A DNA stretch of 13,855 nucleotides from positions 1 through 13,855 of the forward strand of contig JAEOUH010000035.1 in NCBI GenBank assembly GCA_016839365.1, read 5' to 3'. The notes beneath the pieces were generated by a model that was not told the DNA's origin, ran no database searches, and worked only from the letters and a program-made list of their open reading frames with translations. Positions 8,378-13,855 of the stretch are shown one piece after another. The translations under genes were made by a program, and so were the position numbers. Each line of letters begins with the position of its first letter. Position 1 is the stretch's first letter. Source of the stretch: Candidatus Hermodarchaeota archaeon (GTDB lineage Archaea; Asgardarchaeota; Hermodarchaeia; Hermodarchaeales; Hermodarchaeaceae).

Positions 8378-10129
8378 ATGAAGAAACTGGTTCATCATGG
8401 CGTTCGTGTAGCAAAACTGCCAGCAACGACTGGGATGGTTCTCACCATCAGGGGTACAGACTATACACTGAATGCACGGCAAGAAGAAATGATGCGAGCC
8501 TTCGTTTCGAAACGCCATCTTGGTTACTGGGAGGATCAAGTCTTTGTGCGCAACTTTCTAAAAGATTTCAGCAAAGCCTTGGGTATCAAACCTGTTCTGA
8601 AACCCCAAGAAGTCAATCTAGAATCTTTGTTTCGTGAAGGTATCACCCAACGGGAACATGAACTGCAGCAGAAAGAAGCCATGACCAAAGAGGAACGAAA
8701 AGAATTAGCCGCACAGCGGAAAGAAATCCGGGAAGCCTTACGTGCTAAGTATGGGTATGCGGAAATTGATGGTGAGCGCGTGGAAGTGTCGAATTGGACC
8801 GCGGAGCCCAGCTGTATCTTCATGGGTCGAGGTACACATCCCCTTCGTGGACGATGGAAACCAGGACCCCAAGAAGAGGATATTACGCTAAATTTGAGCC
8901 CAGATGCACCCATGCCTGAAGGGAACTGGGCTGGGCGCCTTTGGCAACCCGATAGCCTCTGGCTGGCAAGATGGGAAGACAAACTCTCAGGAAAAGTCAA
9001 GTACGTCTGGGTATCGGATACCGCTACGATCAAACAGGATCGGGAAGCCCAAAAATTCGCGGTAGCCCAACAGCTGGCGAAGCGTATCAATAGCGTGCGC
9101 CACTCAATTCAGAATGACTTGAATTCCAATCAGCCTAGACGACGAAAAATCGCCACCGCTTGTTATCTGATTGATGCGTTAAGCTTGCGTGTAGGTGATG
9201 AGAAAGACCCCGATGAGGCTGACACTGTAGGCGCTACCACACTCCGACCTGAACATGTCACAATTAGAGAAGATGGGGTAGTCGAGTTTCAGTTTCTTGG
9301 AAAAGATTCCGTACCTTGGCACAAGACCGCGAAACTACCTCCTGAGGTTGTAGACCAATTACAGGTGCTGATAGATAATGCCAGAGCACCCCGCTCTGGT
9401 GATCGGCGCGGTCATCCGAGCCTTGACCGCCCCCAAATATTTCCCGATGTGAAGAGTCGTAACGTTAACGCCTATCTTTCCGAAATCCTGCCGGGACTTA
9501 CCGCCAAAGTCTTCCGCACATACCATGCCAGCAGCACTGTTCGGACTTCCCTCAGCCGCGCAAAAGTAAAGCCCGTCGACCCGAATTGGATAAAGAAAGA
9601 TGCCGCAAAGCGGGCGAATCTGGAAGCTGCAATTGTATGTAATCACACTAAACAGGCACCTAAAGGTTGGAACGCCCGGCTCCAACGCTTTCGCGAACAG
9701 CAAAAACGCGCAAACGAACGCATTGCCAAGGCGAAAGAAAACCTAGCAGCTCGACAAGCCCGTCAAAAAGAACTTGAAGCCAAACAACTGGCTAAACTCA
9801 AGCAATTACAGGAGAGAGGCCACCCTATTCCCCGGGGTAAGAATCGGCCCTTCGCCAGTTCAATTGCCTCAGCTCGAAGAAGCGTTGAAACTGCCAAAGA
9901 GCGCCTTGCACGTGCCATGGACGCAAAGGCGAAACTCAATTCGCAGTATGATATTGCCAAGAAAACCCGCACCTGGAATCTGGGAACGAGCCTCAAGTCC
10001 TACATTGATCCGCGCATCTATCGCGACTGGGGTCGCCAAGTTAAGTACGATTGGAAGGATTTCTACCCCTCAACCTTACAACGAAAATTCGCTTGGATTG
10101 ACAAAGACGACCAAAACAATGAATGCTAG
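8378..10129 (+). CDS. top1: DNA topoisomerase IB, eukaryote/archaeal long type
   Basis: IFMGRGTHPLRG, LRVGDEK..EADTVG, FLGKDS, LTAKVFRTY, CNH, LGTSLKSYIDPR. All five catalytic residues (R, K, R, H, Y) are present, with a coiled-coil linker before Tyr542 (10001-10003). Confidence 0.96.
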   Translation: MKKLVHHGVRVAKLPATTGMVLTIRGTDYTLNARQEEMMRAFVSKRHLGYWEDQVFVRNFLKDFSKALGIKPVLKPQEVNLESLFREGITQREHELQQKEAMTKEERKELAAQRKEIREALRAKYGYAEIDGERVEVSNWTAEPSCIFMGRGTHPLRGRWKPGPQEEDITLNLSPDAPMPEGNWAGRLWQPDSLWLARWEDKLSGKVKYVWVSDTATIKQDREAQKFAVAQQLAKRINSVRHSIQNDLNSNQPRRRKIATACYLIDALSLRVGDEKDPDEADTVGATTLRPEHVTIREDGVVEFQFLGKDSVPWHKTAKLPPEVVDQLQVLIDNARAPRSGDRRGHPSLDRPQIFPDVKSRNVNAYLSEILPGLTAKVFRTYHASSTVRTSLSRAKVKPVDPNWIKKDAAKRANLEAAIVCNHTKQAPKGWNARLQRFREQQKRANERIAKAKENLAARQARQKELEAKQLAKLKQLQERGHPIPRGKNRPFASSIASARRSVETAKERLARAMDAKAKLNSQYDIAKKTRTWNLGTSLKSYIDPRIYRDWGRQVKYDWKDFYPSTLQRKFAWIDKDDQNNEC

Positions 10130-10963: not shown

Positions 10964-11347
10964 ATGAGAGCGTTAACTTGTATTGCGATTCTCTTTGGAA
11001 TCATCGCCATCGCTGCGGGATTCCTCGGTTTGATGTTCTTCATAGCCACAGTCGGTGACATCGTCGCCAATCAAACGACTGCCCTCATGCTCTTCGGTGC
11101 AGCAGGGATTATGATAGTCGTCGCCATCATTCTGGGCTATCTTGGCCAACGGCAACCAGAACGGGTCGTCGTCAAAGCCCAAGTCGATCTCCCTGGTGAC
11201 TTTGATGTTAGTCAGGTTAAATGCCCCCATTGTGGTGGTTCACCCGATCGTGAACACCTCGCCTACGATCCCCGAATTGGTGCAGTTGTTCTCACCTGCC
11301 CCTACTGTAACAGAGTCTCCCAACTTGTCGAAGATGTCAAATGGTAA
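10964..11347 (+). CDS. Hypothetical protein: two N-terminal TM helices and a C-terminal Zn-ribbon
   Basis: Two long hydrophobic segments followed by CPHC-X18-CPYC, ending VEDVKW. Confidence 0.85.
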   Translation: MRALTCIAILFGIIAIAAGFLGLMFFIATVGDIVANQTTALMLFGAAGIMIVVAIILGYLGQRQPERVVVKAQVDLPGDFDVSQVKCPHCGGSPDREHLAYDPRIGAVVLTCPYCNRVSQLVEDVKW

Positions 11348-11443
11348 TCTCATGACTAAAAACAAAAAAACCCGTATTGCGCTAACACCCTCACGAACTT
11401 CCAATACTGTCCTTTGAGGACCCAGACTGAGCTGAAACCGTAA

Positions 11444-11812
11444 ATGCCCCCAATACCGCCTGAAACACCTTCCAAGTCAATGTCGTCGGACGACATTGTA
11501 AAACAGATTTCAAAAGTATTAGAGGACTTGAAGAAAGACGGAAAAATCATCCGAATACGAATTTGTCCCAAATGCAAATCCCCGAATATACGAGGACAAG
11601 AAACCTGGTATGATATTGGAGGCGCTATGGGAATTTCACCGCCCAAATACCGCTGCCTTCAATGCGGGTACTGGGGGCGGGTTATCCTCGAAGCTACCAA
11701 CGAAGACTTTGATGAACGGATCCTCGATGAACTCAATCGCACAGATGTTCAAAGCGCCCAAAAACTCTTGAACGACATCAACCAACAAGCAACCGAAGAA
11801 GAAGATCAATGA
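11444..11812 (+). CDS. Hypothetical soluble Zn-ribbon protein
   Basis: ICPKCKS...KYRCLQCGYWG and an acidic C-terminus. The stop overlaps the next in-frame ATG (ATGA, 11809-11812). Confidence 0.82.
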   Translation: MPPIPPETPSKSMSSDDIVKQISKVLEDLKKDGKIIRIRICPKCKSPNIRGQETWYDIGGAMGISPPKYRCLQCGYWGRVILEATNEDFDERILDELNRTDVQSAQKLLNDINQQATEEEDQ

Positions 11813-13575
11813 ATGGATGTGCACAACTGTTGACACGAATCAAACTCATGCCTCTCACTCTTCTGGCATTACTCTTCCTCATGCTCGCTAGCCCTTTCAT
11901 GTTCACACAATTTTCTGCAGTGGCTGACACACCAAACAATACCACTCTTTCGAATCGATCGAGCCCTATGAATTATGATTTCCGTGTCCTCAATGAAACC
12001 GTGCACGTCATCCCCCAAATGGATGCGTCAGTAATCATTAATTATTCCATCTCCTTCGAAAACTATGGCACCGACTTCGACTACATCGATATCGGTCTGC
12101 CGAATTCCTACTACGTGCTTTCCAGTTTCCGAGCCTATTGGTCCCTCAGCAATGCACCCTATGTTGAACTTAGCGTCGCCCCCTCTGAGGCAATCGCCAT
12201 TGGTATTGAAATCTTCATCCCGGTGGCTCTCCGACCCGGAAACGGTGAAAACGGGACAATTATTGTTTGGGGTAACCAACAACGCATGGTCTATCTTGAC
12301 ACCGATCCAGCAACTCCTGGTTATGTTGGCTACGAATTCATTCCCACCTGGTATGGGTCCAGCTATAACCGTGGGACCGATTATCTCGGCTGTCACCTCC
12401 ACTTCCCCAATGGGTTCAACAATGGCACCCTCGCCAAATACCACCACACAGCACCCACCACCTACTACTGGACTAACACCAACCTAGTCTACCTATGGGA
12501 ATACACTAACCTCCCCAACTATCAAGGACTACCCCACGGCATCAGCTTTCCCTATGACGAATCTTACATCACCACCTACTTCACCACAGGAGGAGGCATC
12601 GATTGGGGCGGGATTTTAGAGGAATACTTTGACCTCATCATCTTTGCCGTCATTGCCATTGTCATCTTTGGCGCCTGCTGTCTCAGCATTACTCGAAGCG
12701 TCCGAGCAGGTGGGACCGCTCGTGGCCTGGTCAAACGCGGCTATCTACCCCCCGCTGTGAAAGTTGAAGCACTGGGAGTTCGCCGTGGCCTCACCGTCGT
12801 AGAGGCGGCGGTACTTAACGAAGTCCCGCTCAACCGGGTGTTCACCATGATTGTCTTCGGCCTTCTCAAGAAAGAGCTCATCACCATCCAACGCGAAGGC
12901 AAAGCTAAACCCACCTTTCACCCCGACCAGGCCAACATCGCCAAGGCTGCTGGTAGCCAAGGGCGCTTCCACTACTACGAACGCCTCTTCATCAAAGCCA
13001 TCACCTCCCAAGGCAACCTTGACAAAACTGCAGTTCGCACCATGCTCAACACCCTCATCAAAACCACCGCCCGTAAACTCGAAGGCTACTCCCGCACCGA
13101 CACCAAAGCCTTCTACACCCGCATGATCGACCAGGCCTGGCGCCACATCGACCAAGCCACCACCCCCGACGCCCAAGCCAACGCCCTCAACGACTACGCC
13201 GAATGGCTCCTCCTCACCCCCGACTACGACCACCGCATCAAACCCTACCACCACTACCACGTCCCCGGCTGGTACTGGTGGTGGATCTGGGCCAGCCACC
13301 CCCGCCCCCACGTCATCACCCCCACCGTCCCCACCACCGCCATCCGCCCCACCACCCCCATCACCCTCACCGACTTCGCCAACGCCACCGTCCTCGGCAC
13401 CCAAAACTTCGCCAACAACGTAGTAACAGGATTCCAGAACCTCGCCAACCAAATCGCCACCGCCTTCCGCCCCCCACCACCCCCACCCCCCAGAAGCTCA
13501 TTCAGCGGCCGCAGCTGCGCCTGTGCCTGCGCCTGCGTATCTTGTGCGTGTGCTTGTGCGGGGGGAGGGCGTTAG
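11809..13575 (+). CDS. Hypothetical membrane protein (DUF2207-like architecture) with a polyproline stretch and a C-terminal (Cys-Ala)n-GGGR tail
   Basis: Signal/TM segment, Tyr/Asn-rich domain with several N-x-S/T sequons, TM LIIFAVIAIVIFGACC, then a basic region, P7 and CACACACVSCACACAGGGR-stop. Alternative start ATG 11848. Confidence 0.88.
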   Translation: MNGCAQLLTRIKLMPLTLLALLFLMLASPFMFTQFSAVADTPNNTTLSNRSSPMNYDFRVLNETVHVIPQMDASVIINYSISFENYGTDFDYIDIGLPNSYYVLSSFRAYWSLSNAPYVELSVAPSEAIAIGIEIFIPVALRPGNGENGTIIVWGNQQRMVYLDTDPATPGYVGYEFIPTWYGSSYNRGTDYLGCHLHFPNGFNNGTLAKYHHTAPTTYYWTNTNLVYLWEYTNLPNYQGLPHGISFPYDESYITTYFTTGGGIDWGGILEEYFDLIIFAVIAIVIFGACCLSITRSVRAGGTARGLVKRGYLPPAVKVEALGVRRGLTVVEAAVLNEVPLNRVFTMIVFGLLKKELITIQREGKAKPTFHPDQANIAKAAGSQGRFHYYERLFIKAITSQGNLDKTAVRTMLNTLIKTTARKLEGYSRTDTKAFYTRMIDQAWRHIDQATTPDAQANALNDYAEWLLLTPDYDHRIKPYHHYHVPGWYWWWIWASHPRPHVITPTVPTTAIRPTTPITLTDFANATVLGTQNFANNVVTGFQNLANQIATAFRPPPPPPPRSSFSGRSCACACACVSCACACAGGGR

Positions 13576-13817
13576 CAGGCGTGCGTATGTCAAGAATGTT
13601 AGGCATTCTGTGCTCCTAGAGTAATACCGTGGTTTCGTATGGAGAATTATTTATAGGTGATACGCTAGGCTGTACGCCGAGGTTATGGAGGAATCGTGGT
13701 CCCTCGGAGAACCATTGCGATATTCCTTCTTCTCCTTCTTTGTCTTGTTGTAGGATTTGGGATAGTACAAGTGTTAAAAATTCTAACTGCCGTGCTTGCG
13801 CTGGGGGCGGCAGATAG
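13550..13817 (+). repeat. Imperfect direct repeat of the gene end (13550-13575 vs 13792-13817) bracketing a short intervening segment
   Basis: GT GCT TGT GCG GGG GGA GGG CGT TAG vs GT GCT TGC GCT GGG GGC GGC AGA TAG. Both encode ACAGGGR-stop and all differences are synonymous. Confidence 0.8.
13792..13817 (+). pseudogene. Displaced 3' fragment of a Cys-Ala-tail gene
   Basis: Encodes ACAGGGR-stop, identical in protein sequence to the end of 11809-13575, without the upstream gene body. Confidence 0.6.
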
Positions 13818-13855
13818 TAGTATTCCAATAAAAAAGGATTCTAAACTTCTTATTC

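Follow-up and report, generated by a model that had tools for sequence, protein, structure and literature searches.

A C/A-saturated gene end in a Hermodarchaeota archaeon as the probable mark of a recombination hot spot

Introduction

Why do the silent positions of one gene of a Candidatus Hermodarchaeota archaeon fill with C and A as the gene approaches its 3′ end, and why does this pattern end abruptly just before the stop codon? The gene lies in a stretch of 13,855 nucleotides (the window, that is, the whole of the DNA analysed). The first-pass annotation had read the bias as A-to-G and C-to-T changes accumulated on the minus strand, near a replication start, an R-loop or a recombination hot spot, or through a targeted mutator. 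The features on which the argument rests are collected in Table 1.

Table 1. Coordinates of the features of the locus, as positions in the window
Feature	Position	Strand	Remarks
Two small upstream genes	10964–11812	+	Ordinary composition; order with the host gene conserved (same in L014, L015)
Upstream gene, membrane protein with zinc ribbon	10964–11347	+	
Upstream gene, zinc ribbon	11444–11812	+	
Host gene	11809–13575	+	588-aa protein of an uncharacterised family; ORF and translation
C/A-saturated arm	12400–13536	+	Bias in synonymous sites and amino-acid choice, climbing toward 13536; full gradient ~1.1 kb
Long antisense ORF	12745–13452	-	Low-complexity Gly/Val/Glu/Asp translation
Tract core	12843 to about 13536–13556	+	Keto skew -0.36; 714 bp to 13556
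Sole repeated piece of the host gene	13505–13585	+	81 nt, 89% identical to contig C56:46–126 (paralogue tail); blastn
Flip point in the Cys-Ala tail	13537–13575	+	Same residues pass from TGC/GCC to TGT/GCG/GCT; codon alignment
Stop codon, end of interspecies homology	13573–13575	+	Four-species DNA alignment
Right flank, weakly G/T-leaning	13576–13855	+	Keto skew +0.20 to +0.26; spacer and start of paralogue

The host gene and its tract

The protein encoded by the host gene finds no sequence match in Pfam, NCBIfam or the PDB, and the same holds for its one distant homologue, a 29%-identical protein from another family that ends in the same Cys-Ala tail; orthologues in congeners are 65–89% identical. 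Read from the translation and from the helices of a low-confidence AlphaFold model (pLDDT 36, too poor for a fold search), the chain appears to run from an N-terminal hydrophobic helix through a strand-rich region, a putative central transmembrane helix, a helical C-terminal region and a proline run to a (Cys-Ala)n-GGGR tail, and the gene appears to be that of a membrane protein.

In codons 400–562 of this gene, two-fold codons ending in a pyrimidine are 48 C to 0 T (chance about 3e-18, with C at 43% in the genome), those ending in a purine are 13 A to 2 G, and four-fold sites hold 79 C, 8 A, 4 T and 0 G, that is 87% C against 27% genome-wide, which bears out the original description of near-universal C endings with A-ending Lys, Glu and Gln codons. 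The count first given for 13321–13380 was likewise exact (39 C, 6 T and 5 G, besides 10 A). Over 13060–13420, C reaches 49% and A 23%, with G at 16% and T at 11%, and across 12901–13500 a GC skew of -0.44 to -0.55 accompanies an AT skew of +0.28 to +0.36, excess C going with excess A. Both the most C-rich 360-nt segment of the 2.2 Mb genome (51.7% C; mean 22.9%, sd 3.4%) and its highest 120-codon C3 segment (0.84; 99.9th percentile 0.675) fall here, and the tract is the strongest of its kind in the genome. The other genes of the window have mixed third positions, as had been noticed (C3 0.15–0.29). Moreover, the bias reaches beyond silent sites: codon positions 1 and 2 of the tract stand at the 99.3–99.7th percentile for C+A, and the residues with C/A-rich codons that had caught the eye are indeed enriched, Pro, Thr, His, Gln, Asn and Lys making up 42% of codons 400–562 versus 25% genome-wide. 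The long antisense ORF and a +2-frame ORF at 13203–13619 were considered as genes and rejected as by-products of this composition; the antisense frame stays open because sense NNC codons read as GNN on the opposite strand, never as a stop.

As the gene approaches its 3′ end, third-position C+A climbs from ~0.55 to 0.96–1.00, interrupted only by a dip over codons 300–350. The intensification toward the gene end reported earlier is thus real, but it stops short of that end: the boundary is sharp at about 13537, 40 nt upstream of the stop codon, and the last 12 sense codons carry no third-position C. The strongest C/A-to-G/T step in the genome is found here (D=0.71 at 13506, in 300-nt windows). 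On the other side, the right arm is short and weak (about +0.2) and is ended by the contig edge. A co-oriented tandem paralogue, which starts with GTG at 13696 and has a match in the sister species G007, is cut by the same edge.

Conservation and age of the tract

Low-complexity sequence so close to the end of a contig (280 nt), in a draft metagenome-assembled genome, invites the suspicion of an assembly, binning or chimera artefact. Its probability is negligible, given that neither the reading frame nor the conserved protein sequence is disrupted, that the same tract is found in seven species-level genomes (four records coming from two accession sets), that public contigs from other samples cover 13078–13416 and 13350–13578 with 1–6 differences, and that synteny past the stop is shared with G007. 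The public (Logan) contigs diverge from the window at 13505, 13537–13568 and 13605; the tract holds few of their differences (13074 T>C, 13181 A>G, 13422 A>C) and the 5′ part of the gene many.

Orthologues, in which the first-pass annotation had suggested looking for the same gradient, have kept it in at least four congeners and share the same profile. At conserved amino acids, third positions are identical in all four species compared in 93 of the 111 codons of residues 401–560, versus 78 of 246 in residues 1–400. For C>T, the changes per C3 site amount to 0.017 in the tract and 0.122 in the 5′ part; the figure for C>A does not differ. Since amino-acid divergence within the tract is ordinary, recent interspecies transfer does not explain these frozen synonymous sites. 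Present-day changes, once polarised, mostly leave C/A (11 vs 2), which runs against the continuing directional accumulation that had been supposed. The tract is old, inherited and maintained, and its saturation predates the divergence of the congeners. In the other family, the homologue with 29% identity is without it.

The slot behind the stop codon

Interspecies homology ends at the stop codon, which marks the 3′ end of the host gene as an insertion slot. ORF maps and tblastn of seven loci revealed that its contents vary between relatives: a single endonuclease gene in convergent orientation, two copies of which one is co-oriented and the other convergent, a copy with a frameshift, or else a tandem paralogue. 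In five congeners (G002, G003, G005, G010 and G012) the orthologous stop is followed directly by LAGLIDADG homing-endonuclease genes, one or two in number, and these congeners apparently have no tandem paralogue at the slot and yet keep the tract; the tandem paralogue occupies this place in the present genome and in G007. No endonuclease gene is found in the window itself, and the anchor is placed from the congeners and from contig C56 of the same genome, where a convergent LAGLIDADG gene, at C56:140–1744, lies ~25 nt past the stop of the paralogue. Six loci display a common layout, consisting of a C/A arm, a roughly neutral endonuclease core and a ~1 kb G/T arm.

A PDB sequence search alone fails to recognise the endonuclease family, which was identified through its homologues and a fold search. 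Thirteen of its 14 members match PF14528, both LAGLIDADG motif acids are conserved, and the model (pLDDT 90) matches the folds of I-DmoI, I-Tsp061I and PI-SceI, so that the slot genes are predicted to be double-motif LAGLIDADG homing endonucleases.

From these observations, the tract is probably the upstream (C/A) arm of a kilobase-scale skew mark of mirror polarity, located where the host gene ends in a hot spot of both recombination and insertion; among the settings proposed at the outset, a recombination hot spot is the best supported. The hot spot would be the slot where free-standing LAGLIDADG genes swap in and out in this genus, with endonuclease-made breaks as the presumed trigger. Break-and-copy repair repeated at the anchor over the long term would drive one strand, the one that presents its 3′ end to the anchor, toward C>A>>T>G and the complementary strand toward G>T, with an effect fading over roughly 0.7–1 kb. 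Such a DNA-level bias would fill the synonymous sites and also move amino-acid usage toward Pro, Thr, His, Gln and Asn.

Gene conversion between the host gene and its tandem paralogue, with no endonuclease involved, might also make and spread a skew, as in a strict form of the GRINS known from bacteria (PMC8256042). Besides the tandem paralogue there is a third tail on C56, in four relatives the contig breaks off within the tract, a contig end is no more than 400 nt away for 11 of the 88 skew tracts in the genome (p=0.0002), and the type of skew with its amino-acid shift fits the published description. Even so, the repeated part in the assembled genome is limited to the 81-nt tail, five congeners keep the tract in the apparent absence of a tandem paralogue, and low-complexity C runs can explain the contig breaks (one relative's contig ends in poly-C), which leaves conversion by itself an improbable source of the tract.

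Skew tracts in the genome and in other Asgard archaea

The tract belongs to a class. Of the 88 skew tracts of the genome, 46 are C/A-rich and 24 G/T-rich on the coding strand, and weaker examples of the class, in either orientation, are found in about 20–70 genes. Four-fold sites hold C 493, A 66, T 37 and G 9 in the C/A tracts, and G 293, T 140, A 65 and C 56 in the G/T tracts. Sharp intragenic steps run from C/A to G/T in 16 genes and in the reverse direction in 3, and whole-DNA counts of the two kinds of step range from 30:11 to 11:2. The genome has six LAGLIDADG or intein loci, and top-24 third-position tracts accompany five of them; most tracts have no endonuclease close by. The first-pass annotation had held that similar tracts, if common genome-wide, would tell against its interpretation; in part they are common, and they indicate a class and not noise. 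The bias acts on DNA and not at the coding level. Because the genes at this locus converge, each arm is rich in C and A on its respective coding strand, and it is through other loci that a coding-strand effect is excluded.

A relation new here is that the tracts follow the absence of canonical MutS-MutL across 22 Asgard genomes. The statistic used was the spread of third-position C+A per genome, tract counts by all-nucleotide keto skew having given no separation of the genomes. Its median is 0.090 in the 12 genomes without detectable mutS-mutL versus 0.058 in the 10 that have them (p=0.0003 by genome, 0.0023 by family), a comparison confounded by kinship, since the mutS-mutL genomes may be one clade. 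One genome (G025) has mutS-mutL and still shows tracts. The presence of NucS alone is a weaker predictor, two tract-bearing genomes being without it by family and protein search.

Selection on mRNA or translation, whether for optimal C/A-ending codons or for an A/C-only RNA kept unstructured, was weighed against this background. NNC codons, and NNA codons for Lys, Glu and Gln, are read by Watson-Crick pairing with G34 and U34 tRNAs. The preferred codons of the tract are precisely these, its synonymous sites are strongly conserved, and tracts coding in C/A are about twice as common as those coding in G/T, and more extreme. Nevertheless, ribosomal-protein genes are ordinary (L1, L10, L11 and L12, with C3 of 0.24–0.38), the mirror tracts take the rarest codons, with 53% G at four-fold sites, and codon choice flips within a single Cys-Ala repeat. 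In addition, amino-acid usage is shifted as well, the distant homologue has no tract, and the bias follows repair-gene content across genomes. Selection of this kind is already largely refuted and very improbable. The ribosomal-protein genes, the complementary G/T tracts and the tract-free distant homologue also uphold the initial judgement that no ordinary GC3 or codon-adaptation bias is at work.

Strand exposure, repair and the polarity of the mark

The other family of explanations holds that the minus strand stayed single-stranded for long, whether in an R-loop or close to a replication start, or that a targeted deaminase acted on it, with C>T and A>G as the outcome. The composition is formally equivalent to an enrichment of G and T on the minus strand, and in this regard the original interpretation stands as an asymmetry between DNA strands; the polarity of the flip, C/A on the left and G/T on the right, is also origin-like. 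Moreover, in break-induced or synthesis-dependent repair, displacement would leave the nascent strand unpaired with the polarity seen here, a suggestion that draws on PMC7615360. However, the skew is gone within ~1 kb and does not persist over the length of a replichore, 88 tracts and dozens of flips are spread over 2.2 Mb, and no Orc1/Cdc6 initiator is found among the window proteins scanned against Pfam, all of which speaks against a replication start. As for R-loops, sense transcription would expose the plus strand, and tracts occur in both orientations with respect to genes. C>T deamination is not the main driver, as the GC content of the tract reaches 66%, and transitions alone are insufficient, the saturation of four-fold sites with C requiring a purine-to-pyrimidine pressure. 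Finally, no directional flux is seen today. Exposure or deamination of the minus strand is thus unlikely, if less so than conversion between paralogues alone; a targeted mutator as such is conceivable.

Damage to the resected 3′ overhang of a break was rejected as a cause on polarity: the simplest break-damage model fails because the polarity is opposite to that of human meiotic hot spots (PMC7615360). For repeated repair at the slot, two chemistries may be envisaged. Heteroduplex correction could be one-sided if carried out by NucS/EndoMS, an enzyme that would cut only G/T, G/G and T/T mismatches, in which case G and T alleles of the invading strand would be converted and A and C alleles would escape. 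Alternatively, G.T mispairs might go uncorrected on the strand that is synthesised anew, running outward from the break. By either route, it is conceivable, though we hold it only tentatively, that such marks and the bacterial GRINS are together a general outcome of recombinational repair without MutS-MutL, in which mismatches near a recurrent break are handled one-sidedly.

Relation to known systems

In vertebrate mitochondrial DNA the sense strand is A/C-rich, and third positions undergo T>C and G>A changes in proportion to exposure. The tract resembles this gradient in its A/C-rich sense strand and third-position shift; the mitochondrial gradient covers a whole replicon and depends on replication, whereas the present one is local (~1 kb) and one of many.

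GRINS are the closest published kind. Described in 2021 in bacteria, and also noted in eukaryotes, they are duplicated regions of >500 bp, with >80% DNA identity to another part of the same cluster or genome and a mean absolute GC and TA skew >0.15, the two being correlated, and are commonest in Streptomyces (PMC8256042). Shared with them are intense correlated skews (G with T, C with A) over 0.3–1.4 kb within functional genes, a maximal effect at third codon positions, the enrichment of Pro, Thr, His and Gln in C/A-rich parts, abrupt skew changes, and a tie to gene conversion as well as to genes for endonucleases or of mobile elements. By the published definition, the skew, the length of the core and the codon and amino-acid pattern of the tract all agree, and duplication is lacking in an assembly that is 84% complete and in which the tandem paralogue is unassembled: in the blastn search of 11809–13855 against the whole assembly the tract is single-copy. 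Further differences are the host, an Asgard archaeon and not a bacterium, and the fixed polarity around an anchor with a gradient over distance, neither of which is described for GRINS. Streptomyces lacks MutS-MutL and uses NucS (PMC6159521, PMC11109965); no paper joining NucS and GRINS was found in the literature searched.

Homing by free-standing and intein-borne LAGLIDADG genes, with co-conversion of the flanks, is known, for instance from the seg and mob genes of phage T4 (PMC2790892, PMC2330249). In the congeners a double-motif LAGLIDADG gene adjoins a conserved host gene, the slot is filled differently in sister species, and the effect on the host gene is graded with distance, as in a co-conversion tract. 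In contrast, co-conversion is described in the literature searched as the copying of markers and not as strand-asymmetric composition. Literature searches for codon usage in Asgard archaea, and for skew at endonuclease sites, returned nothing relevant.

Hot spots of meiotic double-strand breaks in humans show a loss of C and A from the resected single strand, and a long-range asymmetry is attributed to break-induced replication (Hinch et al. 2023, PMC7615360). Both systems show a kilobase-scale, mirror-image, strand-specific signature at a recurrent break, with an off-centre extent of 1–2 kb. They differ in that the strand ending 3′ at the anchor is C/A-saturated here, and in that the human signal is a rate of new mutation whereas the tract is a saturated equilibrium composition.

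Implications

If the tract is indeed the arm of a hot-spot mark, silent sites would record where an archaeal chromosome repeatedly breaks and is copied, including the slots of selfish endonucleases, even empty ones, and recombination hot spots could be mapped from sequence only in uncultured organisms. Low synonymous divergence and odd codon usage at such places would then not be evidence of selection or of gene transfer, and the marks would help to account for the poor assembly of genomes there. Through the link with the loss of MutS-MutL, GRINS-type skews would gain a concrete cause that can be put to the test, of relevance to the engineering of polyketide synthases. How GRINS arise has been an open question since 2021, and a one-sided handling of mismatches near recurrent breaks in the absence of MutS-MutL, if true, would make it testable. 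Should this general reading hold, break hot spots could be read off the genome itself, as a map polarised by strand.

Composition and age of the tract

The window is contig C93 in full (13,855 bp), and the gene carrying the C/A-saturated tract (12400-13536, plus strand) belongs to a draft genome of 2.2 Mb, with 93 contigs and 46% G+C, in which genes were taken as simple longest-ORF calls. The saturation pointed out by the first-pass annotation was borne out by counting: 13321-13380 contains 39 C, 10 A, 6 T and 5 G, and in codons 400-562 the alleged preference for final C is complete at two-fold pyrimidine-ending codons (48/48, compared with 43% in the genome), while purine-ending codons favour A over G by 13:2. 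It also considered residues with C/A-rich codons enriched: P, T, H, Q, N and K make up 42% there, whereas their share is 25% over the whole genome and 28% where a distant homologue aligns. At the four-fold sites of these codons, C occurs 79 times, A 8 times, T 4 times and G not at all; C and T reach 49% and 11% at 13060-13420, and the tract is the top window of the genome for C content (360 nt) and for the fraction of codons with C at third position (C3; 120 codons). The suggested gradient toward the gene end is real: the bias climbs 3'-ward with a single dip at codons 300-350, but saturation ends short of the gene end, at ~13537, where the Cys-Ala tail codons switch from TGC/GCC to TGT/GCG/GCT. 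The dip, to about 56-60% C+A at 12700-12860, coincides with the best cross-family-conserved protein segment (YLPP...LTVVEAAVLNE...).

The bias is an effect of the DNA strand, not of translation. Genes for ribosomal proteins L1, L10, L11 and L12 show a C3 of 0.24-0.38, and the genome also holds G/T-saturated coding tracts of exactly complementary pattern, with mostly G at four-fold sites despite G-ending codons being its rarest. Out of 88 skew tracts, the coding strand is C/A-rich in 46 and G/T-rich in 24, and a 29%-identical homologue from another Asgard family keeps the same architecture and Cys-Ala-GGGR tail without any tract. Tracts of the same kind occur in the S19 ribosomal protein gene starting contig C85 (C3 0.66; T at third positions 0.02) and in an FKBP-type isomerase gene of that contig (C3 0.61), its remaining ribosomal-protein genes being of ordinary composition.

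Nor is the tract an artefact or recent. Parts of it are nearly identical in public contigs of other samples, and the gradient recurs, wherever assembly covers the region, in orthologues from seven or more congeneric species, four of them with titled public records from two accession sets. Among codons whose amino acid is shared by four species, the third base is invariant at 93 of 111 within residues 401-560 and at 78 of 246 within residues 1-400; the C/A state is older than the split of these congeners. Parsimony-polarised changes per C3 site were 0.017 in the tract versus 0.122 in the 5' part for C>T, and 0.006 versus 0.037 for C>G, with C>A unchanged, which indicates that G and T are specifically excluded. 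Since protein divergence within the tract is ordinary, recent interspecies exchange does not explain the frozen third positions. As for assembly, contigs of four relatives break within the C-rich tract (G014, locus L006 on C13, plus G005, G010 and G012 at residues 495-540), one relative's contig terminates in a poly-C run, and for 11 of the 88 skew tracts the nearest contig end is no more than 400 nt away (p=0.0002).

Polarity and the endonuclease slot

No C/A-to-G/T step in the genome is stronger than that at 13506. Sharp steps of this sense outnumber the reverse by 30:11 (threshold 0.40) and 11:2 (threshold 0.50), and intragenic ones, scored in reading direction at third positions only, by 16 genes to 3, with genes of both strands among them. 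In PolD, MCM and other genes, C/A climbs to one point and G/T then fades away from it; together with the step polarity, this makes the tract the left arm of such a skew mark.

DNA homology of four species stops precisely at the host stop codon (13573-13575), the slot where congeners carry an additional gene. Thirteen of 14 members of the slot family matched PF14528, the acidic residues of both LAGLIDADG motifs are conserved, and the predicted structure (pLDDT 90) matches I-DmoI, I-Tsp061I, PI-SceI and WhiA; the family is thus a predicted double-motif LAGLIDADG endonuclease with helix-turn-helix domains. The gene is absent from the window, and in this genome and its sister species G007 a tandem paralogue occupies the slot instead. 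The sole repeated part of the host gene has its second copy, the paralogue tail, at the start of contig C56, where a 535-aa gene of the same endonuclease family follows ~25 nt past the paralogue stop. Public contigs diverge at 13505, 13537-13568 and 13605.

A common arrangement recurs at six loci: first a C/A arm, made up of the last 700 nt of the host gene, then a roughly neutral 0.6-1.9 kb holding the endonuclease core(s), and finally a G/T arm of ~1 kb formed by the N-terminal, better-conserved half of the convergent endonuclease gene. In the present genome the right arm is weak and ends with the contig. Top-ranking tracts are found at five of its six LAGLIDADG or intein loci.

Features of the host contig and of the compared loci
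Feature	Location	Strand or orientation	Description
Topoisomerase IB gene	8378-10129	+	Eukaryote-type; Topoisom_I_N, Topoisom_I, Topo_C_assoc
Host gene	11809-13575	+	588 aa
Repeated segment	13505-13585		Second copy on C56
(Cys-Ala)n-Gly-Gly-Gly-Arg tail	13519-13572		C-terminal
S19 gene	C85:132-718
FKBP-type isomerase gene	C85:2748-3504
Endonuclease N-terminal region	C56:10971-11852		Second, partial copy
Slot gene, G002	3' of orthologous stop	convergent	533 aa
Slot genes, G003 and G010	3' of orthologous stop	co-oriented; convergent	Relative; copy
Slot gene, G005	3' of orthologous stop		Frameshifted copy
Slot gene, G012	3' of orthologous stop	convergent	Copy
Slot gene, G005, as locus L017	C21:287-1820		Past the tail

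In G005 (locus L017), the slot gene past the tail is split into three matching pieces in different frames and probably represents a decaying copy, as the homing cycle predicts. The partial copy at the opposite end of C56 has a strongly C/A-rich coding strand and continues into the contig end. In the host region, the topoisomerase gene, two genes upstream of the operon, is of ordinary composition, and the C-terminal tail, matching letter for letter that of the 29%-identical homologue (L011, on contig C38 of Asgard genome G021), is probably a functional motif for metal binding, lipidation or sorting, of which no earlier account was found.

The tract resembles GRINS (PMC8256042) in skew type, third-position focus, amino-acid shift, abrupt changes and an unexplained mechanism. 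It is set apart from strict GRINS because these are duplicated by definition, unlike the tract in this assembly, and were described without the anchor and polarity found here (PMC8256042).

Mismatch repair and possible mechanisms

The spread of third-position C+A over 100-codon windows was compared among 22 Asgard genomes (binomial floor 0.05). Its median is 0.090 without detectable mutS-mutL versus 0.058 with them (Mann-Whitney p=0.0003 with genomes as units, 0.0023 with family means), a contrast confounded by kinship, as the mutS-mutL families may be one clade. With the present genome left out, extreme genes number 31.6 versus 3.0 per Mb, respectively. Presence of NucS predicts the spread less well (p=0.005 with genomes as units, 0.026 with families). 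The strongest tracts, with third-position C+A down to 0.03 and 10 extreme genes within the 100 kb sampled, belong to G035 (family f14; 1.2 Mb), an 84% complete genome in which no NucS or MutS-MutL could be found. Tracts are absent from G021, which has both systems, and the single exception, G025, shows tracts despite mutS-mutL.

The C/A-rich strand is the one whose 3' end faces the anchor of the mark. Damage to a resected 3' overhang predicts the opposite polarity, as observed at meiotic hot spots in humans, where C and A are lost from the single strand (PMC7615360), and was therefore rejected. One possibility is that a strand re-synthesised outward from a break would retain G.T-type mispairs and become G/T-rich; leading-strand synthesis shows this asymmetry too when Streptomyces is repair-deficient (PMC11109965). 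Alternatively, NucS/EndoMS, which cleaves mismatches of the G/T, G/G and T/T types and leaves A/C, A/A and C/C uncut (PMC4838380, PMC6159521), might act on the heteroduplex beside the break, converting G/T alleles of the invading strand and sparing A/C alleles. The excess of C over A is explained by neither model, so an extra GC bias is needed, and the observed polarity is compatible with both outward re-synthesis and NucS/EndoMS conversion.
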